Positions 6,129-49,109 of a stretch of DNA of 64,000 bases are shown one piece after another. Positions within the stretch are counted from its first letter, which is position 1; every line of letters begins with the position of its first letter. Origin of the DNA: an uncultured Dehalococcoidia bacterium (GTDB lineage: Bacteria; Chloroflexota; Dehalococcoidia; DSTF01; RBG-16-68-14); NCBI GenBank assembly GCA_964406605.1, contig CAYOSF010000004.1, positions 36,322 to 100,321 of the forward strand, written 5' to 3'. The translations under genes were made by a program, and so were the position numbers. The notes below the pieces were generated by a model that was not told the DNA's origin, did not search any database, and was given only the letters and a program-made list of their open reading frames with translations.

Positions 6129-6731
6129 ATGAACGCCATCATAAAGGTCACCGGTCTCATGGTCATGGTAGCGGCGGGGTACATCGGAATAGCTGGAGGC
6201 GTCGTCCAGGCGGCACCGGGGCCCGAAGAGGCGCAGATGGAGCGGATCACCGACCCGTGCATGGTGCTCGCGGACTGCATCCAGATCGATCCCTGTCTCG
6301 TCGTGGATTGTGACGATGAGCCGGCCGTTGAGCCTGCTGACGACCCGGCCGTTGAGCCTGCTGACGACCCGGTCGTTGAGCCTGGTGACGACCCGGCCGT
6401 TGAGCCCGGCGACGACCCGGCCGTTGAGCCTGGTGACGACCCGGCCGACGATCCTGGGGACGACCCGGCCGACGACCCTGGGGACGATCCCGGAGACGAC
6501 CCGGGCGACAATCCGGGCGACGATCCTGGAGACCACCCTGGTGACCAGCCGGGCGGTGACCCTGGGAACCAGCCCGGGACCAGCTCTCTGCCCGACGCCG
6601 GCACCGGCGACGGCGCCCCGGCCCAGAACAGCCAGGGAGTCATCGTTCTCGCCGCACTGGGCATCGCGGGCATCGCGATCCTGTTCGCCATGTTCGTGGC
6701 GTTCCGGAGCAAGGAATCGTCCGCACGCTGA
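6129..6731 (+). CDS. Secreted/anchored acidic tandem-repeat protein (Asp/Pro-rich)
   Basis: N-terminal hydrophobic signal/TM. Five 8-aa repeats (DDPAVEPA/G), then about twelve 4-aa repeats (DDPG/DDPA). C-terminal LPDAGTG...hydrophobic helix...RSKESSAR tail. Confidence 0.5.
   Translation: MNAIIKVTGLMVMVAAGYIGIAGGVVQAAPGPEEAQMERITDPCMVLADCIQIDPCLVVDCDDEPAVEPADDPAVEPADDPVVEPGDDPAVEPGDDPAVEPGDDPADDPGDDPADDPGDDPGDDPGDNPGDDPGDHPGDQPGGDPGNQPGTSSLPDAGTGDGAPAQNSQGVIVLAALGIAGIAILFAMFVAFRSKESSAR
6304..6590 (+). repeat. In-frame tandem repeats (24-bp x5, then 12-bp x~12) inside CDS 6129..6731
   Basis: Repeating gacgacccggccgttgagcctgstgac units followed by gacgayccbggv units, read directly from the sequence. 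Confidence 0.7.
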
Positions 6732-9180: not shown

Positions 9181-9800
9181 GCGCGTGAGGGCGAGGGGGG
9201 AGGAGGGTCATGGGTCGGGGGTCGAGGGTCGGGGGTCGGGGGAGGGTCCTTCGGCAAGCCCTTCGGCAGGCTCGGGGCGAGGGGCCAGATTCCTCGCTTC
9301 GCTCGGAATGACATTGCTCTTCATGTGAGTGGGGGAGCGCTGATGTCGAGGCGGGCGAGGGGAGAGGGTTCACCGCGGCGGCGAGCTTGGAGGGCGTGGC
9401 TCCCTCACCCCGACCTGACGGTCGACCCTCTCCCGCAGGCGGGCGAGGGGAGAGGAGGGTCATGGGTCGGGGGTCGAGGGCCGCGGGAGGGCGGGAGGTT
9501 CCTTCGACAGGCTCGGGGCGAGGGGCCAGGTTCCTCGCTTCGCTCGGAATGACACCGCTCTTCATGTGAGTGGGGGCGCGCTGCTGATGTCAAGGCGGGC
9601 GAGGGGAGAAGGCGGGGGTCATGGGTCGGGGTCGAGGGTCACGAGAGGGCGGGAGGTTCCTTCGACAGGCTCGGGGCGAGGGGCCAGATTCCTCGCTTCG
9701 CTCGGAATGACATTGCTCTTCATGTGAGTGGGGGAGCGCTGATGTCGAGGCGGGCGAGGGGAGAGGGTTCACCGCGGCGGCGAGCTTGGAGGGCTTCGAG
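9181..9800. repeat. Cluster of REP-like composite repeats (family 1): three copies of a ~110-130-bp unit, one CCCTCACCCCGACCTGACGGTCGACCCTCTCCCGCAGGCGGGCGAGGGG hairpin unit, and (GGGTCGR)n G-tracts
   Basis: Near-identical units at ~9267-9393, 9507-9612 and 9667-9795 (GCTCGGGGCGAGGGGCCAGATTCCTCGCTTCGCTCGGAATGACATTGCTCTTCATGTGAGTGGGGG...). G-tracts at 9208-9245, 9463-9480, 9617-9640. The same modules recur at 20285-20545, 26893-27125 and 32800-32905. Confidence 0.85.
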
Positions 9801-10259
9801 CTCGTGGAGGGTCTGGAGGCACTGGCGGTGCAGGTGTGTTTCGTAGCGAATGATGTTGTCGAGGACATGGGGCTCGGGAATGATGGAACTGTCCTGGGCA
9901 CGGTCGACGGGCTCGAGGTCGGGAAACCGGTCTTCGGAGCCGGTCTCCTCGATATAGGCGGCGGCGTGGGCAAGGTCCTCCGCCTCGTCTTCTACCTGCT
10001 GGGCCGTGACGGCAACCTCGAAGCGAGTGACGCGGTGGAGACGCCAGAGGAGGAGGGCGACGCGTTCGGCCAGGGCGTGCTCGAGATCGCTCTCGGGGCC
10101 GAGACTGGCGAGGATGCCGTCGCGATAGCGACGCCAATCGGACTCCCGCTCCATGCCCGGAATGACGGGTTTGGTGGAGGTAATGCCATGCGTGAGGGCG
10201 TTGCGGGCAATGACCGCCTTGCCGGTGTCAGTTGCGGGACCTGTCTTGCCCTTTGTCAT
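9720..10259 (-). CDS. Hypothetical protein; 3' end runs into repeat copy 3
   Basis: Begins MTKGKTGPATDTGKAVIARNALTHGI with a non-Arg-rich composition. The last ~25 codons are encoded by the family-1 repeat, so the native C-terminus is probably altered. Confidence 0.4.
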   Translation of the reverse strand: MTKGKTGPATDTGKAVIARNALTHGITSTKPVIPGMERESDWRRYRDGILASLGPESDLEHALAERVALLLWRLHRVTRFEVAVTAQQVEDEAEDLAHAAAYIEETGSEDRFPDLEPVDRAQDSSIIPEPHVLDNIIRYETHLHRQCLQTLHELEALQARRRGEPSPLARLDISAPPLT

Positions 10260-10337
10260 GGTTGAGCGCCGCCCCGTGGGCGGACACGGGGGACAGGGCA
10301 CCCACAGGGGGGTGCCTCTACAGTGTGGGCCAGGTAA

Positions 10338-10570
10338 TTGTTTCGCAAAATCGTGTTTTTTCTATGTACGCGCATTCGCATTTGGTATTGGGCGTGTGGG
10401 CGCACCCTACCCGCGGAAGGGCAGGCGGCCGTGCGCCCCTACATGGCTAGGCGGCCGTACGCCCCTACGGTTGGGTGTACGGAGCTACGATACGGCGCGG
10501 GCGGGAGAACGCCAAGGGGTGGGTGGCACGGCAAAAGGGTCGAGGGCCAGGGGTCGCGGGTCGCCGGAGC
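10338..10570. repeat. Family-3 element, copy 1 (~190 bp), plus adjacent (GGGTCGR)n tract
   Basis: Homologous to 20558-20725: shared GTTTYGCARAATCRTGTT...CGCGYATTCGCRTTTGGTAT, perfect palindrome GGCGCACGGCCGTGCGCC, and 3' block GTACGRAGCYTAGGATACGGCGCGGKCGGGAGARCGCSAAGGGGYGGGTGGCAC. Confidence 0.75.
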
Positions 10571-10727
10571 AGGGGGGCCTGCGATATTCCGCTATCGCCT
10601 CGAGCCCTCTTCCCTCTCGTCGACGACGGACCAACTCCCAGTGAACGTTGTCCACAGAGTTCCCGTGTGAACCAGGGTTATCGGGTCTCTGTGACAATAA
10701 CGCTACCTGGGTCCGGCGGGGGGGGCG

Positions 10728-11207
10728 CTAGCCTGCGGACGCCGGACCCTCGCTGTCACCGCGGGCGGCTCGCAAGACCTGGTTGAGCTGTTCCTCATAC
10801 CCCTGAGCCCGGAGACCATCGCGAAGCTCCTTGCCCGGCAGGTGCGGCAGGCGGAAATAGAAGAAGTGTCCGACTGGGTCGGTGTTCGCCACACTCTCGT
10901 TCCACAGCGGTCGATCGACAGCGATAGTCAGGCGGCGAAACTCCTCATCGAGTTCCTGCACGATTGCCTCAGCAGTAGGAAGCATGCCGGGGCGTGCCCT
11001 CTCCAGGGAGCTCTTTATCAGCCAGCGCCTGTCGAGGTCGTTGCAGTACTCCTCGAGCGAATACAAGTAGACCGCGCGGCATTCGTCTACTGTCTGCGCC
11101 CACCCGCTCAGGAGAAGATGGGGCCACGATGATTTGGCCTTCTTGAGGAAGAGCACGCGCTCTTCATCAGGCAGTTCGAGCAGAGGGTCTCTTCGACTAG
11201 TCATCAC
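10728..11207 (-). CDS. Hypothetical protein (159 aa), translationally coupled to the upstream small ORF
   Basis: ATGA overlap with ORF 11204..11557. Balanced amino-acid composition. No recognisable domain by eye. Confidence 0.45.
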   Translation of the reverse strand: MMTSRRDPLLELPDEERVLFLKKAKSSWPHLLLSGWAQTVDECRAVYLYSLEEYCNDLDRRWLIKSSLERARPGMLPTAEAIVQELDEEFRRLTIAVDRPLWNESVANTDPVGHFFYFRLPHLPGKELRDGLRAQGYEEQLNQVLRAARGDSEGPASAG

Positions 11208-20284: not shown

Positions 20285-20545
20285 TCGTTGAGAGGATAGC
20301 GGCGAGAGGGTCGGGGGTCGAGGGCCGGGGGTCGCGAGAGCGCGGGCGAGGCAGTTGCCTGTTGATTGCATTTGGAAATGGGACGGATTCCAGATACGAG
20401 AAGCGCGCATGTGGTTTGATTGACCGTCGTCGGGATGGGACCGAGGGCCGGAGATGGAGGGTCGGGGGCCAAGGGTCGCCGGAGCGGACCCTCACCCCGA
20501 CCTGACGGTCGACCCTCTCCCGCACGCGGGCGAGGGCAGGGAACG
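20285..20545. repeat. Family-1 repeat modules: (GGGTCGR)n tracts plus CTCACCCCGACCTGACGGTCGACCCTCTCCCGCACGCGGGCGAGGG unit
   Basis: Direct sequence identity to modules in the 9181-9800 cluster. Confidence 0.8.
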
Positions 20546-20557
20546 GTAGGGAATTCG

Positions 20558-20725
20558 TTTTGCAGAATCATGTTCTTCCCCTGCACGCGTATTCGCGTTT
20601 GGTATCTGGAATCGGTTTCCGGGCGCACGGCCGTGCGCCCCTACGCGACCGGACCCGCACAAGACGGGTTGTACGAGCCTAGGATACGGCGCGGTCGGGA
20701 GAGCGCGAAGGGGCGGGTGGCACCG
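20558..20725. repeat. Family-3 element, copy 2
   Basis: See copy 1 (10338-10530). Contains palindrome GGCGCACGGCCGTGCGCC. Confidence 0.75.
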
Positions 20726-20852
20726 GGGGGAGGGCGGATACTGCGGCTGGCGAACGCAGAACGGACGCTACTGCGGCGGGACGGGCCTCGCCAGCAGAGC
20801 GAGTATGCGGGACAAGGGCGGCCTATAGCGAGGGGGCGGCGATCGGCTTAGA

Positions 20853-22208
20853 ATGGTAGTGGTCATGAGGCAAGTGGAGAGCGTGGCTGTGGGCGCGAAG
20901 GCGTGCAACTTGGCGGAGCTAGAGCCCTATGTCCGAGCGCTGGAGACTCTGGCGACGCAAGCCCGCCCTGTGGGTGTAAGCACGGGCAGCGCTGATTGGA
21001 TGTCGAAGGTGCTTGATGGGCAGCCCAGCGGGGAGCTGAAGAGAGTTGTTCCGCTGGAGAAAAGAAGGGAAATGGGCGCGTTCTTCACCGGGAAGGCGCT
21101 GGCAGGCGAAACGGTAGCGCCATGGCGGCAGAAGCTCACGCGGCAGGCGAGGATAGTTGACCCGGCGTGCGGTGCGGGAGATCTTCTGCTTGCATGTGCG
21201 CGGTCATTACCAACGCATGAAACACTCAGAGAGACCTTGTGGCAATGGGGCCGCCAGGTATTCGGGTTCGACTTGCATCCGGAGTTCGTGCGGGTGACCA
21301 AAGCAAGGCTAGCCCTGCTGGCCGCCCAGCGTGTACGCCGAGACAGTAGAGTGGTGATCCCTCCGCTTGATCAGATGTTCCCGAATGTGCAGGTGGGGGA
21401 TGGCTTGGGCGATGTGTACGATGCGGTCCGCCCGACGCACATCGTCTTGAACCCTCCGTTCCAGAGAGCGGAGGCCCCGGACTGGTACACGTTGGGGAAT
21501 GGTCTGGTATCGCGCGCGGCGGTGTTCGTTCAGAGATGGCTGTTGGAGGCAGAGTCAAAAACGGAGTTCGCCGCAATCCTGCCTGACGTACTGAGGACGG
21601 GAGCCAACTACGCGAGCTGGAGAGCGTGGGTGGAAAGGCAGAGCGCGAGCCGCGAGGTGAAGGTGCATGGAGCCTTTGACTCCGAGGCGGATGTGGATGT
21701 GTTCATACTTCGGGTGGTATGCGGCTCGAGGAAGGAAGCCGATGAGACTGGCTGGTGGCGGGGAGGGCCGGCGGAGCAGGGATGCGTAGGCGAGCGGTTC
21801 AATGTGCACGTGGGATCCGTGGTGCCGCACAGAGACGCGAAAATGGGGCCTTGGCGTGCGTTTGTCACCACGCGGGTATTGCCACGCTGGGGTGTGGTGA
21901 GGGCTGATAAGAGCAAGAAACGCCGATATCGCGGCCGAACGTTCTCGCCGCCGTTCGTGGCGATACGCCGCACATCAGCACCCGGCGACAGGAAGCGGGC
22001 TGTGGGTACGATTGTCACAGGTGCGATTCCTGTGGCGGTAGAGAACCATCTTATCGTGGCCGAGCCGCGTGACGGCTCAGTTCAGAGCTGTCGTGGGTTG
22101 CTGGATGTGCTGCATTCAGACGAGAGCGATCGGTGGTTCGACGAGCGAATACGGTGTAGACATCTGACGGTGTCGGCGGTGGCCGAATTGCCGTGGCGGA
22201 GCTGGTAG
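20853..22208 (+). CDS. N6-adenine DNA methyltransferase (gamma-class amino-MTase)
   Basis: Motif I DPACGAGDLL (AdoMet binding), motif IV IVLNPPF ((N/D)PP(Y/F)). No TRD/REase fused. Alternative ATG 12 nt downstream. Confidence 0.8.
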   Translation: MVVVMRQVESVAVGAKACNLAELEPYVRALETLATQARPVGVSTGSADWMSKVLDGQPSGELKRVVPLEKRREMGAFFTGKALAGETVAPWRQKLTRQARIVDPACGAGDLLLACARSLPTHETLRETLWQWGRQVFGFDLHPEFVRVTKARLALLAAQRVRRDSRVVIPPLDQMFPNVQVGDGLGDVYDAVRPTHIVLNPPFQRAEAPDWYTLGNGLVSRAAVFVQRWLLEAESKTEFAAILPDVLRTGANYASWRAWVERQSASREVKVHGAFDSEADVDVFILRVVCGSRKEADETGWWRGGPAEQGCVGERFNVHVGSVVPHRDAKMGPWRAFVTTRVLPRWGVVRADKSKKRRYRGRTFSPPFVAIRRTSAPGDRKRAVGTIVTGAIPVAVENHLIVAEPRDGSVQSCRGLLDVLHSDESDRWFDERIRCRHLTVSAVAELPWRSW

Positions 22209-22209
22209 G

Positions 22210-24258
22210 ATGACGACCGACTACCTCAAGTTCTCTCCAGACATTCTGCGCCGGCTGGGCGAAGAGCTTGTGCCTCAGCCGGAACAGGGCATCGTAGAGC
22301 TGGTGCGAAACTCATACGATGCGGACGCCGTAAGCTGCACTGTGGAGATCAACGACGCGGGGGGGCCAGGAGGAGCGGTTTGCGTCACTGATGACGGCGT
22401 GGGCATGGATGTCGAGGCGATCAGCTCTGGGTGGCTGGTAGTGGGACGGTCGCCAAAAGTGGGGCGGCAGGTCACCGGGCGGGGGCGCTATCCTGTAGGG
22501 GACAAGGGGCTTGGGAGACTGGCCGCACTGCGCATGGGGCGGTTCGCCGACCTGGCGACTCGACCCAAGCGGGATCCGGGGAAGCAGTTCCGCCTGGTAA
22601 TCGACTGGGTGCGCGTAGACAGCGCGACTGTAGTGGAAGGCGTTCCATTCGAGATCAAGGAACAAGAGACCAGGGAGCCCCCTGGAACGACGATCGAGAT
22701 CAGGGACCTCCACGTTGCGCTGGGGCGGAGAGAGGTGAACCGGCTAGCGCGGTCACTGCTTCTACTGGCGGATCCCTTCGATGACTCGACTGGATTCCAC
22801 CCGCAACTTGTGGCACCAGCCTTCAGTGATCTGGAGAAGCGTGTGCGGGAGTCCTATTTCGCGGAAGCGGATCACAAGCTTGTGGCGAGCTTGGACGAGG
22901 CCGGTAGAGGTCAAGCGGAAGTAGTGGACTGGAAGAATGAAGTGCTGTGGAAGGCTGCACACGAGGATTTGAGCGACCGGCCGTACGAAGCGCCTGCTGC
23001 AACCTTCGAGTTGTCGGTCTTCCTTCTGGACTCCAAGACGTTCTCTTCGCGCTCGGTATCACTGCGGGAAGTCAGGCAATGGCTCCAGGTGGTGGGCGGT
23101 GTCCACCTGTACCATAGGGGACTTCGCGCACATCCGTATGGCGATCCCGGCCACGACTGGCTGGAGATGAATCTCCGAAGGGCAAGAAGCCCCGAAGAGC
23201 GCCCTTCTACGAACACGTCGATTGGCCGGGTCGTCGTCCCGGATCCTGGAGAGCACCTGATACAGAAGACGGATCGAACGGGCTTCATAGAGAACGAAGC
23301 TTTCGGGGAGCTCCGTGGCTTTTGCACAGACGCTCTGGATTGGATGGCGAAAGCGCGACTGCGTGCAAGAGAACGGGGCCGGCAGAAGGAGAGAGTGGGG
23401 GCGTCGCGGTCGGTGGTACGTGCGCGCGAGTCAGTCAAGCACGCCATGGACGAGGTGCCCGTACCGGTGCGGAGGTCGGTGGAAAAGGCGGTGGAGCGCC
23501 TGGATCGTGCGCGTGACAGAGAGTCAAGAGCGCTCAGGGAAGAGCTGCAGCTGTACAGAACGCTGGCTACTGTGGGGACGACGGCCGCAGTCTTCGCTCA
23601 CGAATCGGCGAAGCCAGTTTCTCAGATCGAGAGGACGGCCAGGATCATCGAGAATCGCGGGCGTAGGCTGTTGAAGGAGCGGTATGCAGAAGAGCTGGAG
23701 AAGCCCGTTGGCCTGGTCATTCGGTCATCTCAAGCTCTGCGGAGTTTTGCCGCGCTGCCGCTGAGTCTTCTCAAGCGGGAAAAGCGAAGGGTGGGTCGCG
23801 TGGACGTGCATGCGGTCATCGGGGATGTTCATGATCTCTTCGAACCGTTCCTGACGGACGCTCGCATACGGGTGGATCTTGAACTGACGCAGCAGATCCC
23901 TTCGATAAGGGGGAGTGCTGCAGCGCTTGAGGCCATAGTGGCGAATCTGCTTACTAACGCGGTAAACGCTTTCGCAGCTCAGTCTGGCAAGGTAGCGTCG
24001 CGCCGAGTGGTGATTCGTACAGAACTCTCGGGAGACAGACTGCTCCTGCGAGTCATGGACAATGGACCGGGAATCACGGACATAAGCGTAGACGACATCT
24101 GGCTGCCTGGCCAGAGCACCGTGCCTGGTGGCACAGGCCTGGGGCTTACGATTGTGCGCGACTCGGCGGTGGACCTTGGCGGGAGTGCGCACGCACTGGC
24201 GCATGGGGAGCTGGAGGGTGCCGAATTGGTAGTTGAGCTTCCGACTATCGGAGCGTAG
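22210..24258 (+). CDS. Cytoplasmic GHKL-ATPase (MORC/MutL-like Bergerat fold) fused to a histidine kinase core (HisKA-like + HATPase_c)
   Basis: N-terminal ELVRNSYDADA N-box, DDGVGMD and GDKGLG. C-terminal H-box-like VFAHESAKPVSQI, N-box LLTNAVNAF, DNGPGI, GGTGLGLTIV. No TM segments. Starts 2 bp after the MTase stop. Confidence 0.75.
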   Translation: MTTDYLKFSPDILRRLGEELVPQPEQGIVELVRNSYDADAVSCTVEINDAGGPGGAVCVTDDGVGMDVEAISSGWLVVGRSPKVGRQVTGRGRYPVGDKGLGRLAALRMGRFADLATRPKRDPGKQFRLVIDWVRVDSATVVEGVPFEIKEQETREPPGTTIEIRDLHVALGRREVNRLARSLLLLADPFDDSTGFHPQLVAPAFSDLEKRVRESYFAEADHKLVASLDEAGRGQAEVVDWKNEVLWKAAHEDLSDRPYEAPAATFELSVFLLDSKTFSSRSVSLREVRQWLQVVGGVHLYHRGLRAHPYGDPGHDWLEMNLRRARSPEERPSTNTSIGRVVVPDPGEHLIQKTDRTGFIENEAFGELRGFCTDALDWMAKARLRARERGRQKERVGASRSVVRARESVKHAMDEVPVPVRRSVEKAVERLDRARDRESRALREELQLYRTLATVGTTAAVFAHESAKPVSQIERTARIIENRGRRLLKERYAEELEKPVGLVIRSSQALRSFAALPLSLLKREKRRVGRVDVHAVIGDVHDLFEPFLTDARIRVDLELTQQIPSIRGSAAALEAIVANLLTNAVNAFAAQSGKVASRRVVIRTELSGDRLLLRVMDNGPGITDISVDDIWLPGQSTVPGGTGLGLTIVRDSAVDLGGSAHALAHGELEGAELVVELPTIGA

Positions 24259-24259
24259 A

Positions 24260-24976
24260 TTGACCTCCGTGCGTTCCGACTCGCAGATCGAAAAGGTGGC
24301 GGTGGTTGATGACGACCAAACCGAGGCACAGCTAATGAGCGAGATTGTGCAAGAGGCTGGCTTCTTGCCTGTGCCAGTTCTTGCGACCGAGCGAACGGAT
24401 CGGTTTGACAACCCCTCGGTGCTAGCAGCTGTGATTCAGGACAGAGCGGAGGCGGCCGTGTGTGATCATCGCCTGCGACCGCTGGGTTATGCATCTTTCG
24501 ACGGCGCACAACTGGTGGCCGAGCTTCTTGTGCGAAAGATACCGGCAGTGCTGGTCACTACGTACCTGGATATCGACGCAGATGTGTCGATTAGAAGGTG
24601 GCGCGACAAGATCCCAGTTCTACTAAGTAGGGATGAAGCCGATCCAGAGCATATCCGAGAGGGACTGGAAGCGTGTCTGTCGGAGATAGCCGGCGCAGTA
24701 CTAGCTGGCCGGCGGCCTCGCAGAGCCCTGATACGCGTGGTGGATGTCACACAGGAATCCAGCGAGACCGTTGTGGACGCTATCGTGCCGCAGTGGAACC
24801 CGAACAAGGGCGTTCGCTTTCCGGTCACGCTCCTGCCTCGTGAGCTGCACAGCGAGGTGGCCCCCGGAATCAGGCTACTGGCTGATGTGAATATTGGCGC
24901 ACGAAAGGCCGAAGAGCTGTTCTTCGGGAACTTCGATCTTGCGCCAGAGCCTGCTCGAGAGAATGACGTCCTGTGA
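24260..24976 (+). CDS. Response-regulator receiver (REC) domain protein with ~100-aa uncharacterised C-terminal extension
   Basis: KVAVVDDDQTEAQ…AAVCDHRL (phospho-Asp position)…VLVTTY…K. TTG start at 24260 directly after the kinase stop. The in-frame ATG at 24233 would overlap the kinase by 26 bp. Confidence 0.65.
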   Translation: MTSVRSDSQIEKVAVVDDDQTEAQLMSEIVQEAGFLPVPVLATERTDRFDNPSVLAAVIQDRAEAAVCDHRLRPLGYASFDGAQLVAELLVRKIPAVLVTTYLDIDADVSIRRWRDKIPVLLSRDEADPEHIREGLEACLSEIAGAVLAGRRPRRALIRVVDVTQESSETVVDAIVPQWNPNKGVRFPVTLLPRELHSEVAPGIRLLADVNIGARKAEELFFGNFDLAPEPARENDVL

Positions 24977-25943
24977 GCTAGCAATCCTTGATGTGGGACA
25001 CGGCAACTGTGTCGTGCTCAGTGACGACCTTGGCACAGTGGTGTTCGACGCTGCGAGCGGAGAGACCTTGCTCGAGTTCCTCGAACAGGAGGAGATTACT
25101 GACATAGATGCGGTGCTGATCTCGCATGCGGACGCCGACCACATCGCGGGCGTGCTGACACTCCTGCTGGAGCCCAGCGTTCTCGTTCGCAAGATCTACC
25201 TCAACCCAGACGCTGCGAGGACAACACAGATATGGTGGGACTTCCGGTGCGCGCTACGTGTCGCCAGAAGGAGCTTCGGCACACAGGTGAAGACGCAGCT
25301 GACAATGGAGTCGTCGGCGGAGTTCGCCAGGGGTGAGGTGCAGATTGATGTGCTAGCACCGCAACCTGAGATTGCGGCAAGCGGCGCGGGCGGCCGGGAC
25401 TTGAGGGGACGTCTCCTCACGTCCCACTCGGTGTCCGCCGTCGCCCGGATCATGACAGACGATGTCGGCCAGGCAATTCTGTGTGGTGACCTGGACGACG
25501 TGGGCCTTGACAACTTTCTAGAGGCGGGTTCGTCGCCGAGCGCGAAGGTGCTGCTCTTCCCACATCACGGCGGGACGCCAGGTGGAAGCAATGCCTTCGA
25601 CTTCGCGAAACGACTGGTTCAGGCTGTTCAACCGAATGCGGTGGTGTTCTCAAACGGGCGGGCGAGACACGGAACTCCGCGTCCCGAGATCATTGAGGGC
25701 GTACGCGCGGCCGCGCCGCAGGCGCACATCGCGTGCACCCAGCTGTCCGAGAGATGCGCAGCAAATACTCCTTCTGAGCCTCCTGGGCATCTGGCCGCGC
25801 TCCCCGCACAAGGTCGCGCGGTCAACGCGTGCTGCGCAGGGAGTCTGCACGTGAGCCTGCGCGAAGGCAGCATAGCTGCACCGAAGCCGAGCGAGCATCT
25901 GGGTTTCATTAGGCGAGAGGCTCCGACGCGGCTTTGCGAGTGA
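24963..25943 (+). CDS. MBL-fold hydrolase of the ComEC-C-terminal type (candidate nuclease effector)
   Basis: LAILDVGHGNCVVL…DAVLISHADADHIAG…LLFPHHG. Overlaps the REC gene end by 14 bp. Confidence 0.7.
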   Translation: MTSCELAILDVGHGNCVVLSDDLGTVVFDAASGETLLEFLEQEEITDIDAVLISHADADHIAGVLTLLLEPSVLVRKIYLNPDAARTTQIWWDFRCALRVARRSFGTQVKTQLTMESSAEFARGEVQIDVLAPQPEIAASGAGGRDLRGRLLTSHSVSAVARIMTDDVGQAILCGDLDDVGLDNFLEAGSSPSAKVLLFPHHGGTPGGSNAFDFAKRLVQAVQPNAVVFSNGRARHGTPRPEIIEGVRAAAPQAHIACTQLSERCAANTPSEPPGHLAALPAQGRAVNACCAGSLHVSLREGSIAAPKPSEHLGFIRREAPTRLCE

Positions 25944-26106
25944 CGCTGGGCAAGGGATTGTAGTCTGTCGCAGAGAGGCCGGTTGGCGGGCGGCGAGCTG
26001 GTGCCGATGGAGGCGGAACTGGCGGGCCGTGAGGGGCGCCAGTACGAGCCGGCGTCGGTGCTGCTGGAGCGCGTCAAGGCAAAGCGGGTGGCGCGGTAGA
26101 CCAGAC

Positions 26107-26761
26107 GTGAGGCGCGATTCCGAGCGGCGGCATCGCCAGTCCATTCGGCTGAAAGGGTACGACGACGCGCAGGCCGGCGCGTATTTCGTGACGGTCTGCA
26201 CGTACGGTCGGGAATGCCTGTTCGGGGAGGTGGCCGGCGGTGAGGTACGGTTGAACGAATGTGGCGAACTGGTTGAGGCGTGCTGGAATGACATTGCCGG
26301 CCATTTCGCCTGCGTCCAATTGGACGCGTTCGTGATCATGCCCAATCACGTTCACGCTATCCTTCACATCACGGAATGCCAGAGCGCCGCAACCGTAGGG
26401 GCACGGCATGCCGTGCCCCTACCGGGCAACGTGCCCCACCGAAACGTTGAACGGTTCGGCAAGCCGGTGGTGGGTTCGATTCCGACCATCGTGCGGTCCG
26501 TGAAATCCGCCACCACCAAACGTATCAACGAACGGCGCGACACGCCCGGGCGCGCGCGTGTGGCAACGCAACTACTACGAACACATCATCCGCGACGAGG
26601 AAACCACCATGGGCGCGGAAACCGCGCCCCTACCGGGGGTGGAACGACCGGCGCTGGACCGTATCCGACGGTACATCGTCGACAATCCGGCACGGTGGGC
26701 GTCCGATCCGGAGAACCCGCAGGCGGCGGTGCCGGAACGCGAGGAGGCATGGCGCACGTGA
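26107..26761 (+). pseudogene. REP-associated tyrosine transposase (RAYT / IS200-like TnpA_REP) with +1 frameshift
   Basis: Frame 1 reads HRQSIRLKGYDDAQAGAYFVTVCTYGRECLFGE…FVIMPNHVHAILH…SVKSATTKRINERRDTPG. Frame 2 continues VWQRNYYEHIIRDEE…IRRYIVDNPARW. The break lies in a GCGCGCG run near 26545-26555. Confidence 0.75.
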
Positions 26762-26892: not shown

Positions 26893-27125
26893 TAGGCCTA
26901 TGGCGAGGGGCCAGATTCCTCGCTTGCGCTCGGAATGACGGAGAGGGGGAAGGCGGGAGAGCGAGGGGCCGGGGGTCGAGTGTCGGGGGTCGGGAAAGAA
27001 CGGGCGGTGTGAGATGGTGGGGGCGTGGACGCACACGGATAGAGACCGAGGGTGGAAAGCCTCGGCTACGGTGGCGAGAGGGGTCGAGAACCGGGAGTCG
27101 AGGGTCGAGGGTCGAGGGTGGCAGT
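26893..27125. repeat. Family-1 repeat modules immediately downstream of the RAYT remnant
   Basis: GGCGAGGGGCCAGATTCCTCGCTTGCGCTCGGAATGAC plus several GGGTCGAGGGTCG tracts, e.g. gggtcgagggtcgagggtcgagggtgg at ~27096. Confidence 0.8.
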
Positions 27126-39845: not shown

Positions 39846-39957
39846 GGGGCCGGACTGGCTCCCCGAGCAGTCCTTCCCCGGAAGGAGAACCTGCAATCCT
39901 TCCCCGGAAGGACGGTTAATCCTTCCCTGGAAGGACCCGCTCTGGCGGGTGAGCGAT
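39846..39957. repeat. Family-2 repeat (tRNA-Asn 3'-half-like unit with two CCTTCCCCGGAAGGA palindromes)
   Basis: TGGCTCCCCGAGCAGTCCTTCCCCGGAAGGAGAACCTGCAATCCTTCCCCGGAAGGA…; compare tRNA-Asn 3' half TGGCTCCCCGAGCAGGACTCGAACCTGCAACC at 46860-46891. Confidence 0.75.
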
Positions 39958-40062
39958 GGGGAACTAGGGAGCCTGCGCTCCGGCCGTTGGGCGACTATGG
40001 TATCACGCGGCCTGTTACGCCGCGAACCACAGAACCTCTCCCCCACCGATCGCGGTCTCCAC

Positions 40063-41835: not shown

Positions 41836-42372
41836 ATGGGCCAAATGCGGCGGCCCGACCTGTCGGTACACATCAGTCTTGGCGTGCTTTGGGCTTCGTC
41901 ACGGCCCTCCTCAGCCGCTCTTTGGCACGAGCTGCTTTGCGTCTGCTACCACGAGTTCGGCCACGTAGCCACGTTCTGGGCACAAGGCTATGTCTCAGTG
42001 GGCGAGTATGTGGTTTGCGGTGATGGCTGCCGCCGGGCTGAGCGAGCAGAAGGGTTGGTCCTAATGCCGAAATCCTCGCTCCGCTCGCTCGTGATTGCCA
42101 ACAATTGCGGATGCACACGCAGCACCCGTCGAATCCGTCAACTGCTCAGATCAACATTGACAACTAATGCTTGGTGTGTTGCCACCGAGACCTCCTCTGC
42201 TGACCTCAGAGCATGCTCATCTGGGGGGCTGGTGGTGGTTCAGGTGCCGAATCCGCGGGTGTTGAGTCTGGTGTTAGCTGTTGGCTCCCCGAGCATCCTT
42301 CCCCGGAAGGAGAACCTGCAATCCATCCCCGGAAGGACCCGCTCTACTGGTTGGTGGGTCTTCTGCGTCTGA
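41836..42372 (+). CDS. Possible degraded HExxH-motif ORF (YHEFGH), lower GC, 3' end replaced by family-2 repeat
   Basis: Only support: HEFGH motif, a local GC drop, and no better ORF in 41500-42280. Composition is odd (Cys/Ser-rich). Confidence 0.2.
   Translation: MGQMRRPDLSVHISLGVLWASSRPSSAALWHELLCVCYHEFGHVATFWAQGYVSVGEYVVCGDGCRRAERAEGLVLMPKSSLRSLVIANNCGCTRSTRRIRQLLRSTLTTNAWCVATETSSADLRACSSGGLVVVQVPNPRVLSLVLAVGSPSILPRKENLQSIPGRTRSTGWWVFCV
42284..42350. repeat. Family-2 repeat unit
   Basis: TGGCTCCCCGAGCATCCTTCCCCGGAAGGAGAACCTGCAATCCATCCCCGGAAGGACCCGCTCTACTGG. Confidence 0.8.
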
Positions 42373-42601
42373 GGCGTTCGCGCAATTCCTGGTTCGCTCT
42401 GCCTCGCTTGAGTTCTCGCTCCCGGCGCATGGCGGCGGTCCGGGTAGGGAACTCCTCAGAGTACACCAACTGCCAGGGGCCTCGCGTGGCCGTCCACTTG
42501 GCCTGTCCCTCAGCATGCTCGGTCAAGCGCCGGGCCAGGTCTCTGGTGCTTCCGACGTACAATCGTCCTTCCGGGTTCTGCAACACGTAGACAGAGAACA
42601 A
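42344..42601 (-). CDS. GIY-YIG nuclease-family small protein
   Basis: FSVYVLQNPEGRLYVGSTRDLARRLTEHAEG…WQLVYSEEFPTRTAAMRRERELK. Start set at the TTG at 42601 because the longer ORF N-terminus is encoded by the repeat array. Confidence 0.6.
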   Translation of the reverse strand: MFSVYVLQNPEGRLYVGSTRDLARRLTEHAEGQAKWTATRGPWQLVYSEEFPTRTAAMRRERELKRGRANQELRERLRRRRPTNQ

Positions 42602-42622
42602 GAACGCCCCTTGACTCCGGAA

Positions 42623-42895
42623 AGCGGACTGGCTCCGCGAGCGTCCTTCCCTGGAAGGAGAACCTGCAACCCAGCGCTCGATCTTTCGCTGGAAGGACCT
42701 GCTCTGTGGTTGAGTAACTGGCTCCCCGAGCATCCTTCCCCGGAAGGACCCGCTCTATGGTTTGGTGGACTGGCTCCCCGAGCATCCTTCCCCGGAAGGA
42801 GAACCGGCAACCCAGCGGTGAATCCTTCCCCGGAAGGACCCGCTCTATGGTTTGGCGAAATGGCTCCCCGCGCCGGGGTAAAATCCGAACTTTTC
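42623..42895. repeat. Tandem array (~3.5 units) of family-2 repeats
   Basis: Units beginning CTGGCTCCCCGAGCATCCTTCCCCGGAAGGA…, in long (~90 bp) and short (~50 bp) forms. Confidence 0.85.
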
Positions 42896-46859: not shown

Positions 46860-46937
46860 TGGCTCCCCGAGCAGGACTCGAACCTGCAACCTAGCGGTTA
46901 ACAGCCGCCCGCTCTACCAATTGAGCTATCGGGGAGC
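46860..46937 (-). tRNA. tRNA-Asn: tRNA-Asn (GTT), CCA encoded
   Basis: Reverse complement GCTCCCCGATAGCTCAATTGGTAGAGCGGGCGGCTGTTAACCGCTAGGTTGCAGGTTCGAGTCCTGCTCGGGGAGCCA. 7-bp acceptor stem, D-, anticodon- (CTGTTAA loop) and T-arms fold canonically. Confidence 0.85.
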
Positions 46938-47153: not shown

Positions 47154-47582
47154 CTAGGAAAGGCCGACCCCGACCTGCTGGACGAGGGTCATCATGTCGA
47201 AGTAGCGATGGCTCTCCTTGATCCTTCCGCCCTCGAAGGTGAGTAGCTGGACGGACCGCGTTACCTGATGCTTGCCGGAGGCGGGGATCGTACCGTCCGG
47301 ACCAACGAGCGGGCGGGTGTGGGTCCCCTCCCAGATGATCTCCACCGTGGCGGTGCTGTCGCCGGCGACGGCCTTGGTGATGGTTCCCTTGGCGTCCGGG
47401 AAGGCTTCCTTCCAGCCGCGAGCTGCCTCGACGATCCGATCGGCGCCCCGGACGTGCAGGTGTGACCCGATCTCGTCGTACGCACTATCGGGCGCCAGCG
47501 TGGCCTTGAAGCGCTTCATGTCCCCGTCGTTGAACGCCCCGATGTTCTCTCGAGCCACGTGAATCATCTCTTGCTCGGTCAT
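47154..47582 (-). CDS. Ester-cyclase / SnoaL-like polyketide-cyclase family protein (copy A)
   Basis: MTEQEMIHVARENIGAFNDGDMKRFKATLAPDSAYDE… ~80% identical to copy B. Confidence 0.7.
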   Translation of the reverse strand: MTEQEMIHVARENIGAFNDGDMKRFKATLAPDSAYDEIGSHLHVRGADRIVEAARGWKEAFPDAKGTITKAVAGDSTATVEIIWEGTHTRPLVGPDGTIPASGKHQVTRSVQLLTFEGGRIKESHRYFDMMTLVQQVGVGLS

Positions 47583-47686
47583 TTCCTAGTCCTTCCCCTG
47601 GGTCTCTCGAAGGGCGACCCCGCGTCCCTTCGGGCCTGAGATAGGAACGGGGGATACCATCTTCACAAACAAGGATATCACTACTG

Positions 47687-47701
47687 ATTGACGAAGTCAA
47701 T
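47687..47701. promoter_or_regulatory. Perfect inverted repeat ATTGAC-GAA-GTCAAT (candidate operator) in divergent intergenic region
   Basis: Read directly. Identical site at 48519-48533 in the duplicate. Overlaps a TTGACG -35-like hexamer. Confidence 0.45.
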
Positions 47702-47878
47702 CGCCGCGATAGATAACAGCCGGGCTCATCCGGTCATGCGGGACAGGAGTGCATGTAGGAATCGTATTGGAGTCTTGAAGCGGCCAGAGTCAGAGCGTAA
47801 CGTGCTGATACAGATACGTGTTTGCGTTCTTCCCGATAGCCCGCAGGGGGCCGAGCTTCTGTTAGGCCCGTAGACGGC

Positions 47879-47913
47879 GCAGGCAGCCATCGGACATGGC
47901 TGCCTGCTTTCTT
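47879..47913 (+). terminator. Intrinsic-terminator-like hairpin (12-bp perfect stem GCAGGCAGCCAT/ATGGCTGCCTGC, 5-nt loop) followed by TTTCTT
   Basis: Read directly. Lies in the duplicated leader region ahead of a truncated HIT-gene 5' fragment. Confidence 0.55.
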
Positions 47914-47990
47914 GGTGCCGCCTGCGCGCCCAGCTAGAGATGGGCGACGGTCGCGCTCGTGCAGTGGTGTGCGTTCTGCCGCATCGTCCC

Positions 47991-48419
47991 TCAGGAGGAG
48001 GCGGCCCCGATCTGCTGAAGGAGCGTCATCATGTCGAAGTAGTGGTGGCTCTCCTTGATCCTTTCGCCCTCGAACGTGAATACTTCTACCGCCCGAGTGG
48101 TCTGGCGCTTGCCGGAGGGAGGAATCGTGCCTCCCGGACCCATGAGCGGTCCGGTATGCGTCCCCTCCCAGATGAGCTCTACCGTGGCGGTGCTGTCGCC
48201 GGCAACCGCCTTGGTGATGGTTCCCCTGGCGTCCGGGAAGGCTTCCTTCCAACCCAGAACGGTCTCTGCGATCTGCTCTGCGCCTTGGATGCGCCGGTGG
48301 GTCCCGACCTCGTCGTAGACGCTGTCGGGCGCCAGCGTGGCCTTGAAGCGCTTCATGTCCCCATCGTTGAACGCCTCGACGTTCTCACGGGCCAAGTGGA
48401 TCATCTCTTGCTCGGTCAT
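47991..48419 (-). CDS. Ester-cyclase / SnoaL-like polyketide-cyclase family protein (copy B)
   Basis: MTEQEMIHLARENVEAFNDGDMKRFKATLAPDSVYDE…. Start at Met45 of ORF 47991..48551. Confidence 0.7.
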   Translation of the reverse strand: MTEQEMIHLARENVEAFNDGDMKRFKATLAPDSVYDEVGTHRRIQGAEQIAETVLGWKEAFPDARGTITKAVAGDSTATVELIWEGTHTGPLMGPGGTIPPSGKRQTTRAVEVFTFEGERIKESHHYFDMMTLLQQIGAASS

Positions 48420-48518
48420 TTCCTGCTCCTTCCTTTCGATCTCCCCCCGAGTGTCTTGGCGGCCCTCCGAACGGGATGGAGGGTATACCATGCTTACAAG
48501 CAAGCGTAGCATGGTTTG

Positions 48519-48533
48519 ATTGACGAAGTCAAT
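48519..48533. promoter_or_regulatory. Second copy of ATTGAC-GAA-GTCAAT palindrome
   Basis: Identical 15-mer, same relative position between the cyclase (copy B) and HIT genes. Confidence 0.45.
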
Positions 48534-48709
48534 CGCTTTCATAGGAAACACCTAGGATTCCATGGTTATGTAGGGCAGAAGTGTCCTTCGGAGATGTATG
48601 GAGGTCTTGACTCGGCCGGAGTCCGAGCGTAAAGTGCTGATACAGATAGACGTTTGCCTATTTCCGATAGCCCGCAGGGGGCCGAGTGTCTCCAGGGCCC
48701 GTAGCCGGC

Positions 48710-48738
48710 GCAGGCAGCCACATCCGATGGCTGCCTGC
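48710..48738 (+). promoter_or_regulatory. Leader hairpin (GCAGGCAGCCA / TGGCTGCCTGC stem) 50 nt upstream of the HIT start; attenuator-like, weak U-tract
   Basis: Homologous to the 47879-47907 hairpin. Followed by GCGTTTG rather than a clean U-run. Confidence 0.4.
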
Positions 48739-48788
48739 GCGTTTGACGCCGCCTGCGCGCCCACCTAGAATGGGCGACGGTCACTGTC

Positions 48789-49109
48789 GTGCAGTGGTGT
48801 ACGTTCTGCCGCATCGTCGCTCACCAGGAGCCCGCCGAGATCCTCTTCGAGGATGAAGAGATCATGGTGTTCCGCAACCGGCTGAACTGGGTGCCGGTGA
48901 TGCTGCTGGTGGTGCCGAAAGAGCACATCTCGCAGGAGGACTTGTGGCGGCGGATGGGTCGGGTGGCGGAGGTGGCGGTGGAGATGGGCGCGACCCACTG
49001 TCCCAACGGCTTCCGGCTGATCTCGAACTTCGGCCACGACGGAATGCAGAGCATCCAGCACGGGCACGTGCACGTCCTTGGCGGCGGGTTCCTGGGCGAA
49101 TACGCCTGA
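48789..49109 (+). CDS. HIT-family (histidine triad) hydrolase
   Basis: MQWCTFCRIV… and HGHVHVLGG histidine-triad motif. Confidence 0.75.
   Translation: MQWCTFCRIVAHQEPAEILFEDEEIMVFRNRLNWVPVMLLVVPKEHISQEDLWRRMGRVAEVAVEMGATHCPNGFRLISNFGHDGMQSIQHGHVHVLGGGFLGEYA

Follow-up and report, generated by a model that had tools for sequence, protein, structure and literature searches.

What is the ~170-190-bp intergenic element that occurs twice in this stretch of DNA, and to what is it tied? In the window, by which we mean the whole 64-kb stretch that was analysed, one copy lies upstream of an uncharacterised gene, hereafter gene A, and the other has no such gene beside it. The initial annotation proposed a candidate ncRNA or MITE containing a perfect palindrome. 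We found that the element is real and independently conserved, but that it is linked to a gene family and has no demonstrable structure. The features to which we refer are the following.

9720..10259, minus strand: gene A, encoding an all-helical protein of 179 aa; the element is its upstream region.
10260..10332, minus strand: leader, from the proximal block to the start codon of gene A, partly common to locus L027.
10333..10387, minus strand: proximal block of copy 1, AT-rich, reading ACCAAATGCGAATGCGCGTACATAGAAAAAACACGATTTTGCGAAAC on the gene strand (nhmmer, 43.5 bits; alignment; patterns).
10398..10482: variable spacer of copy 1, a cluster of GTAG-tagged hairpin units that is not conserved in the loci of other genomes.
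10498..10529, minus strand: distal box of copy 1, TGCCACCCACCCCTTGGCGTTCTC on the gene strand and GAGAACGCCAAGGGGTGGGTGGCA on the plus strand.
20489..20547: hairpin repeat unit of family D20 abutting copy 2, 92% identical to 9402-9460, downstream of gene A.
20549..20605, minus strand: proximal block of copy 2, an orphan without adjoining gene A (nhmmer, 42.4 bits; patterns).
20621..20644: palindrome of copy 2, 20 perfect nucleotides (GGGCGCACGGCCGTGCGCCC), then CTAC.
20690..20723, minus strand: distal box of copy 2, TGCCACCCGCCCCTTCGCGCTCTC on the gene strand.

The two copies, both on the plus strand (10333-10530 and 20549-20725), resemble each other far beyond chance. Aligned with their flanks by MAFFT (10300-10580 against 20520-20780), they are identical in 78% of the columns, with three well-conserved stretches and a centre rich in indels. 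The substitutions are clustered, as had been noticed, the ends being conserved and the centre indel-rich. Both copies also contain the AT-richer 5′ block (GTTTYGCARAATCRTGTT…ACGCGYATTCGCRTTTGGTAT) and the conserved 3′ block (GATACGGCGCGGNCGGGAGANCGC…AAGGGGYGGGTGGCAC) that had been described, together with a central motif, CGGCCGTGCGCCCCTAC. Four shared blocks have exactly two matches each in the 64-kb window at up to three mismatches, where 0.00-0.06 are expected, and none of 100 shuffles reached two. The central motif has four matches in the window (0.86 expected), all of them within the two copies. Pattern and nhmmer profile scans found no third copy within the 64-kb window. Two Logan contigs of SRR14802572, otherwise 100% identical to the window, start inside the copies (L023 at 10517 and L001 at 20646); such assembly breaks are expected if more copies exist in that genome or community.

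The surroundings of the two copies only partly match the initial annotation, in which both were placed in divergent intergenic regions and next to (GGGTCGR)n tracts. Copy 2 is indeed flanked by divergent genes, GH116 starting at ~20252 on the minus strand and a methyltransferase-like gene at 20853 on the plus strand, whereas copy 1 lies between two minus-strand genes, after the stop of one (10728-11207) and before the start of gene A. Similarly, copy 1 does abut a heptad tract on its 3′ side (10537-10565), whereas the tract nearest to copy 2 (20437-20485) is on its 5′ side, ~65 nt away, with the repeat unit 20489-20547 in between. The similarity between the copies stops sharply at 10530. The gene-side edge of copy 1 is 81 nt upstream of the gene A ATG (10259), and the leader that follows contains a local hairpin (GGCACCC at 10297-10303, GGGTGCC at 10310-10316). 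As had been judged, the element does not look like eroded coding sequence: in-frame reading of the aligned homologue-locus sequences shows no ORF that persists from locus to locus. A small ORF starting from the TTG at 10338 or from a GTG in the distal box was also considered and discarded, its starts and stops not being conserved across loci.

The protein encoded by gene A has no match in profile scans of Pfam, NCBIfam, PADLOC and PHROG. Its AlphaFold model, made with 31 homologues, is all-helical with a mean pLDDT of 79.5, and neither a sequence search nor a Foldseek search of the PDB with this model returned a significant relative. A protein search retrieved 719 homologues at E<=1e-3, of which the few with names belong to Chloroflexi/Dehalococcoidia MAGs, and this family of ~180 aa appears to be confined to Chloroflexota metagenome sequences. 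The genome studied here belongs to an uncultured member of the Chloroflexota; its RNase Y shares 85% identity with the one from Chloroflexi bacterium RBG_16_68_14, the next named matches being again from Chloroflexi/Dehalococcoidia MAGs. The N-terminus of the gene A family carries a conserved GPxTxxGK…NAxxHG motif and the C-terminus is strongly conserved (HLHRQxLQTLHELEALQARRRGE…LARLDISxPP); a subset of longer homologues, of 280-306 aa, has only half of the family sequence in common. At least two paralogues, P0001 and P0003, are found in the assemblies of one sample.

The 3′ end of gene A is itself repeated. Its last 75 nt and the 61 nt downstream are present three times (9260-9395, 9501-9636 and 9659-9794; family D4), with 99% and 71% identity, and the 24 C-terminal residues of the protein are recovered by tblastn at 9324-9395. 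These segments are interleaved with (GGGTCGR)n tracts and with a GGGGCGAGGGGCCAGATTCCTCGCTTCGCTCGGAATGAC hairpin repeat.

What ties the element to gene A is its recurrence at the same place in other genomes. We read seven distinct homologue loci (L026-L031 and L042) from at least five samples, with protein identities of 47-66%.

L027: protein P0002, 66% identity, from another sample; GGTAATTGTTTTGCAGAATCGTGTTTTTTCTGTGTACGCGCATTTGCATT, then the contig end.
L026: protein P0003, 63%, another contig of the same sample; proximal block.
L028: protein P0004, ~62%, ENA metagenome; proximal block and distal box.
L030: protein P0006, ~62%, ENA metagenome; proximal block and distal box.
L029: protein P0005, ~62%, JGI metagenome; proximal block and distal box.
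L031: protein P0091, 55%, with nine further identical contigs including two NCBI MAGs; proximal block and distal box.
L042: protein P0080, 47%, JGI metagenome; proximal block.

The proximal block, which reads ...ACyAAAy…GCG…GAAAACAC…yTGCAAAAC on the gene strand, lies upstream of the gene in one orientation in all seven loci. Upstream sequence is long enough to look for the distal box (TGCCACCnnCCCCTTCGCGCTCTC on the gene strand) in six loci, and four of these, L028, L029, L030 and L031, have it as the end of the 3′ block (GGGGAGAGCGCGAAGGGGnnGGTGGCA), 89-190 nt beyond the proximal block; GAGAGCGCGAAGGGG is exact in three of these four, and neither L026 nor L042 has a clear distal box. The box has a sharp outer boundary, conservation starting at TGCCACC. 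Profiles of both boxes, searched with nhmmer, match only at these upstream positions and in the two window copies, with nothing else in the window or in ~300 kb of other, unrelated loci. Thus every instance except the orphan copy 2 is directly upstream of a gene A homologue and in one orientation. The neighbouring genes differ in every homologue locus. Since both end blocks recur in other genomes, their conservation is independent of the local composite repeats, of which the element could otherwise have been a mere part.

The degree of conservation points in the same direction. Compared with copy 1, the proximal blocks have 48-92% nucleotide identity and the coding sequences 62-72%; in L027 the block is 92% identical and the coding sequence 72%, which is more than expected of unconstrained non-coding DNA. 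The distance from the proximal block to the start codon is 20-80 nt, and ~170 nt in L042, and varies because hairpin repeats have been inserted. Scans of public genomes, metagenomes and viral contigs with GATACGGCGCGGNCGGGAGA, a pattern taken from the 3′ block in the lineage-specific part of the element, gave only chance matches of 20-25 nt, and two other patterns and a protein-profile scan of viral contigs gave no matches beyond chance.

The palindrome that first drew attention to the element belongs to its variable centre. It is perfect in copy 2 (GGGCGCACGG followed by CCGTGCGCCC, 20621-20640) but not in copy 1, where the same 8-nt arms are split (10398-10405 and 10431-10438, 25 nt apart). 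Copy 1 does have the extra duplicated segment that had been reported, as CGGCCGTRCGCCCCTAC units at 10426-10442 and 10452-10468, and a further hairpin whose arms are 10455-10464 and 10473-10482. The spacer sequence that is specific to the two window copies comprises the palindrome, the CCCTAC repeats and GATACGGCGCGG. Across loci the centre of the spacer is unrelated and the palindrome is not conserved; L031 has instead a CCCTCACCCC…CCCTCTCCC…GGGGAG hairpin unit that resembles the D20 unit at 20489-20547. The spacer is evidently a permissive site for lineage-specific hairpin repeat inserts, and the eye-catching palindrome is one of these inserts and not the conserved part. Two short motifs were tested as dispersed ones in the window, and neither behaves as such: GGGTGGCA is not enriched (7 matches against 3.2 expected, a number that 6 of 100 shuffles reach), and CCCCTAC shows a weak excess (13 against 6.3 expected, 2 of 100 shuffles) and outside the copies marks unrelated sites.

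REPs form dispersed multi-copy families of tens to thousands of copies, and REP families are associated with a RAYT gene, which encodes an IS200/IS605-type Y1 transposase. Among the ~15 window ORFs scanned against profile libraries, none encodes a Y1 transposase. The inserts in the spacer nevertheless recall GTAG-tagged REPs, in which the GTAG tag lies outside a stem of 5-13 bp and the loop has 2-20 nt; these elements are often clustered, and are known in Chloroflexi among other phyla, as with GTAG-23 of T. roseum (Di Nocera et al. 2013, PMC3733652). The element has at its centre, in gene-strand reading, GTAG and then directly a G+C-rich palindrome (GTAG-GGGCGCACGGCCGTGCGCCC) with a stem of 8-10 bp; in copy 2, GTAG directly precedes the palindrome on the minus strand (20644-20621), and in copy 1 three such units are clustered. 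Unlike these REPs, the unit is not dispersed, as it has no occurrence outside the two copies in 64 kb at up to three mismatches; the 25-nt loop of copy 1 exceeds the range of 2-20 nt (PMC3733652), and the likeness is confined to the non-conserved spacer and does not extend to the whole element.

Several other repeats populate the window. The (GGGTCGR)n heptad tracts (9197-9247, 9463-9497, 9615-9643, 10537-10565, 20307-20345, 20437-20485, 26951-27000 and 27073-27123) are found only in intergenic regions and are always G-rich on the plus strand; with GGG every 7 nt, they fit the G3N4 pattern of a G-quadruplex-forming sequence. In L027 and L031, from other organisms, (CGACCC)n tracts of a similar kind come after the stop codon of the gene A homologue. 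At 6266-6577, a 12/24-nt tandem array of GACGACCCGGCCGTTGAGCCTG-like units, with 14 overlapping copies of a 96-nt reference, has the look of coding low complexity. Two adjacent segments of ~830 nt at 47156-48842, which are 72-85% identical (families D3, D9, D13 and D17), lie beside the tRNA at 46863-46935 on the minus strand; they probably represent a tandem gene duplication and include a 31-nt inverted repeat that is 94% complementary. Finally, the repeats at 39852-39970 and 42278-42873, built on the palindromic core TCCTTCCCCGGAAGGA (D5, D8, D12 and D16), are a separate intergenic family unrelated to the element.

Altogether, we propose that the element is the bipartite cis-regulatory 5′ region of the gene A family, made of a non-canonical promoter or operator and a leader; we give this reading a probability of about 0.55. 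Such a region best fits an element that is fixed in position and orientation, conserved in sequence but not in structure, and permissive to inserts in its spacer and leader. On the gene strand, the distal box TGCCACCnnCCCCTTCGCGCTCTC would be followed by the variable spacer, by the proximal A/C-rich block ending in yTGCAAAAC and by the leader. The proximal block may constitute a non-canonical core promoter together with the start of the gene A leader, and the distal box is a candidate binding site for a regulator or, alternatively, a candidate signal in the leader RNA. The spacer and leader would tolerate insertions, here of GTAG-tagged REP-like palindromes, and copy 2 would be a paralogous upstream region whose gene was lost. 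It is a regulatory function that we infer, one that could be exerted either as DNA or as RNA. The element is comparable to the 5′ regions that Rfam classifies as ‘Cis-reg’, as it is found, orphan copy 2 excepted, upstream of the homologues of one gene in a fixed orientation, with conserved islands split by inserts of variable length; unlike them, it has no demonstrable conserved secondary structure and no Rfam match.

No canonical sigma-70 promoter was found for gene A in any locus, which makes a conserved non-canonical promoter block plausible. Sites of the TTGACA-N16-18-TATAAT type are missing from within the element in the window, L026, L028 and L042, and the only ones found, in L030 and L031, are on the far side of the distal box and face away from gene A. 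The proximal block itself shows no recognisable promoter consensus in either orientation, and by eye the spacings of the boxes do not fit sigma-54 or ECF-type promoters. In L029, the proximal block overlaps the called TTG start codon, and a core promoter is a poor fit there. In the same locus, a perfect 18-bp palindrome, GGTATCGTATACGATACC (2090-2107, minus-strand reading), overlaps a promoter-like TTGCAT-N17-TATCGT; it lies ~90 nt past the distal box, ahead of a HicB-like antitoxin operon, and is probably a HicAB operator.

Could the element act as an RNA of its own? The results do not favour a free-standing structured ncRNA, as we found no Rfam hit, no low folding energy, no consensus structure and neither promoter nor terminator. 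Among the 4227 families of Rfam 15 none matches the element: at the gathering threshold the only match in the window is the tRNA at 46863-46935, and at E<=5 the two regions gave chance-level miRNA and other hits, far below gathering scores. No intrinsic terminator was found in or beside either copy. The folding energies are no better than those of dinucleotide shuffles, with MFE z-scores of +0.32, -0.13, -0.21 and -0.61 over the two copies and the two strands, the first two being those of the plus strand. Covariation across homologues, a comparison of low power with eight distinct sequences, does not support a conserved structure either: on the gene strand, no consensus pair is predicted in the proximal block across nine sequences, and on the opposite strand the full alignment of seven loci yields four trivial pairs. 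A small RNA transcribed from the plus strand of the window, divergently from gene A and running from the AT-rich block to GGTGGCAC with the hairpins as tolerated variable stems, is thus confronted with z-scores near zero, with those four pairs and with a strand devoid of promoter and terminator, and we consider it very unlikely. It has in its favour that the orphan copy retains both conserved ends without gene A, that the G+T-rich strand permits many G-U pairs, and that the two-copy RNAalifold consensus comprises 44 pairs, among which 5 have changed on both sides, with a stem (GGGCGCAC/GTGCGCCC) present in both copies despite a loop difference of ~21 nt. However, the two-copy consensus is equally good on the opposite strand (-37.6 vs -35.3 kcal/mol), and a long-range helix joining the conserved ends was rejected since these are not mutually complementary. 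On the gene strand, a structured 5′-UTR riboregulator, in which for instance the C-rich distal box would sequester the ribosome-binding site of gene A, is also quite unlikely. The position and orientation of the element relative to the gene are fixed, the distal box in three loci (CACCUCCCCC) resembles an anti-Shine-Dalgarno sequence with CCUCC-like runs, and the MFE fold of L028 pairs the box with the Shine-Dalgarno/start region; this pairing is nonetheless absent from the MFE folds of the four other loci of the five folded (copy 1, L029, L030 and L031). Besides having no consensus structure, such a leader would have to accommodate a distance from box to start of ~140 to ~270 nt with unrelated inserts in between, and an RNA starting upstream of the box would need a conserved promoter there, whereas conservation stops at the box.

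Mobility is the other explanation to be weighed. The element shares with MITEs a size below 200 bp, a non-coding nature, an intergenic location, more than one copy and one copy without associated gene, but it differs from them by the lack of terminal inverted repeats, of target-site duplications and, in the sequence covered, of dispersed copies, and by the fact that its other instances are locked to one gene family in a fixed position and orientation. Indeed, no terminal inverted repeat links the ends of either copy, GTTTYGCA... and ...GGGTGGCAC not being complementary, and no direct repeat, as a target-site duplication would leave, is present at the flanks of copy 1 (...CCAGGTAA/TT...GGCAC/GGCAAAAG, slashes marking the ends) or copy 2 (...TAGGGAAT/TC...GGCAC/CGGGGGGA). 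As for dispersed copies, the 64-kb window has just the two, and a further ~20 kb of sequence from its sample has none. If the element and gene A formed one small cassette, mobile or duplicative, with the distal box at one terminus and copy 2 as a non-autonomous, gene-less derivative, MITE-like in origin though not in structure, this would account for the orphan, for the paralogues and for the 3′ end of gene A being present three times. The change of neighbour genes at every locus, the sharp start of conservation at TGCCACC, the Logan contigs that break within both copies and the repeats joined to copy 2, which are found elsewhere downstream of gene A, are also in line with it. We still regard this cassette as unlikely: terminal repeats, inverted or direct, and target-site duplications are lacking, its downstream end is not conserved between loci, gene A resembles no transposase or recombinase family or fold, and differing neighbours are expected anyway at protein identities of 50-65%. 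Moreover, the context of the locus within a species is identical in at least nine samples, and therefore gives no sign of recent movement.

The orphan copy deserves a closer look, as its intactness is the main observation that the cis-regulatory reading leaves unexplained. Copy 2 matches both box profiles as well as the gene-linked copies do in nhmmer searches, and its distal box sequence is also in Logan contig L001. On its gene-proximal side, it adjoins the D20 unit and a tract of (CGACCC)n; both types of sequence also occur downstream of gene A, at the first locus as well as in L027 and L031. From this arrangement, we read copy 2 as a paralogous upstream region, a copy of the cassette, that probably lost its gene. 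A gene A pseudogene beside it was sought by tblastn and rejected, the sole match having 34% identity over 38 aa with E=0.55. The GH116 gene, on the same strand as copy 2, now begins ~300 nt downstream of it.

Since the orphan scores as well as the linked copies, the module could work independently of gene A in cis. Accordingly, one may envisage that the bipartite module is an autonomous unit that travels with the gene A family, either as the ncRNA partner of the helical protein or as the recognition end of an undescribed small mobile cassette of Chloroflexota. The intact orphan, the sharp outer boundaries of the two boxes and the local triplication of the gene 3′ end speak for such a unit, which we nonetheless hold to be unlikely.

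On its other side, copy 2 faces a low-GC island (20853-26340, also in L001), with a GC content of 0.59-0.62 against 0.67-0.70 around it. The island starts with the methyltransferase-like protein (20853, plus strand). Its other products are a 682-aa protein, whose N-terminus is HATPase_c_3/restriction-enzyme-like and whose C-terminus is a HATPase of histidine-kinase type, an unknown protein of 235 aa, and a protein of MBL fold with weak hits in PADLOC. The whole has the appearance of a defence island, and local repeat families are present on both of its flanks.

The element is of a familiar kind, a conserved 5′ region belonging to a gene family, but this instance, with its REP-like hairpins, had not been described before; it does not overturn current understanding. 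The use of the spacer as a landing site for lineage-specific hairpins calls for caution when an ncRNA or a MITE is predicted from repeats in genomes of high GC and repeat content. Finally, what looked like an anonymous non-coding repeat is now tied to one widespread (719 hits), uncharacterised protein family of Chloroflexota, and two short signatures, yTGCAAAAC with its upstream A/C-rich block and TGCCACCnnCCCCTTCGCGCTCTC, provide handles for finding the regulatory regions of this family and the factor that binds them.
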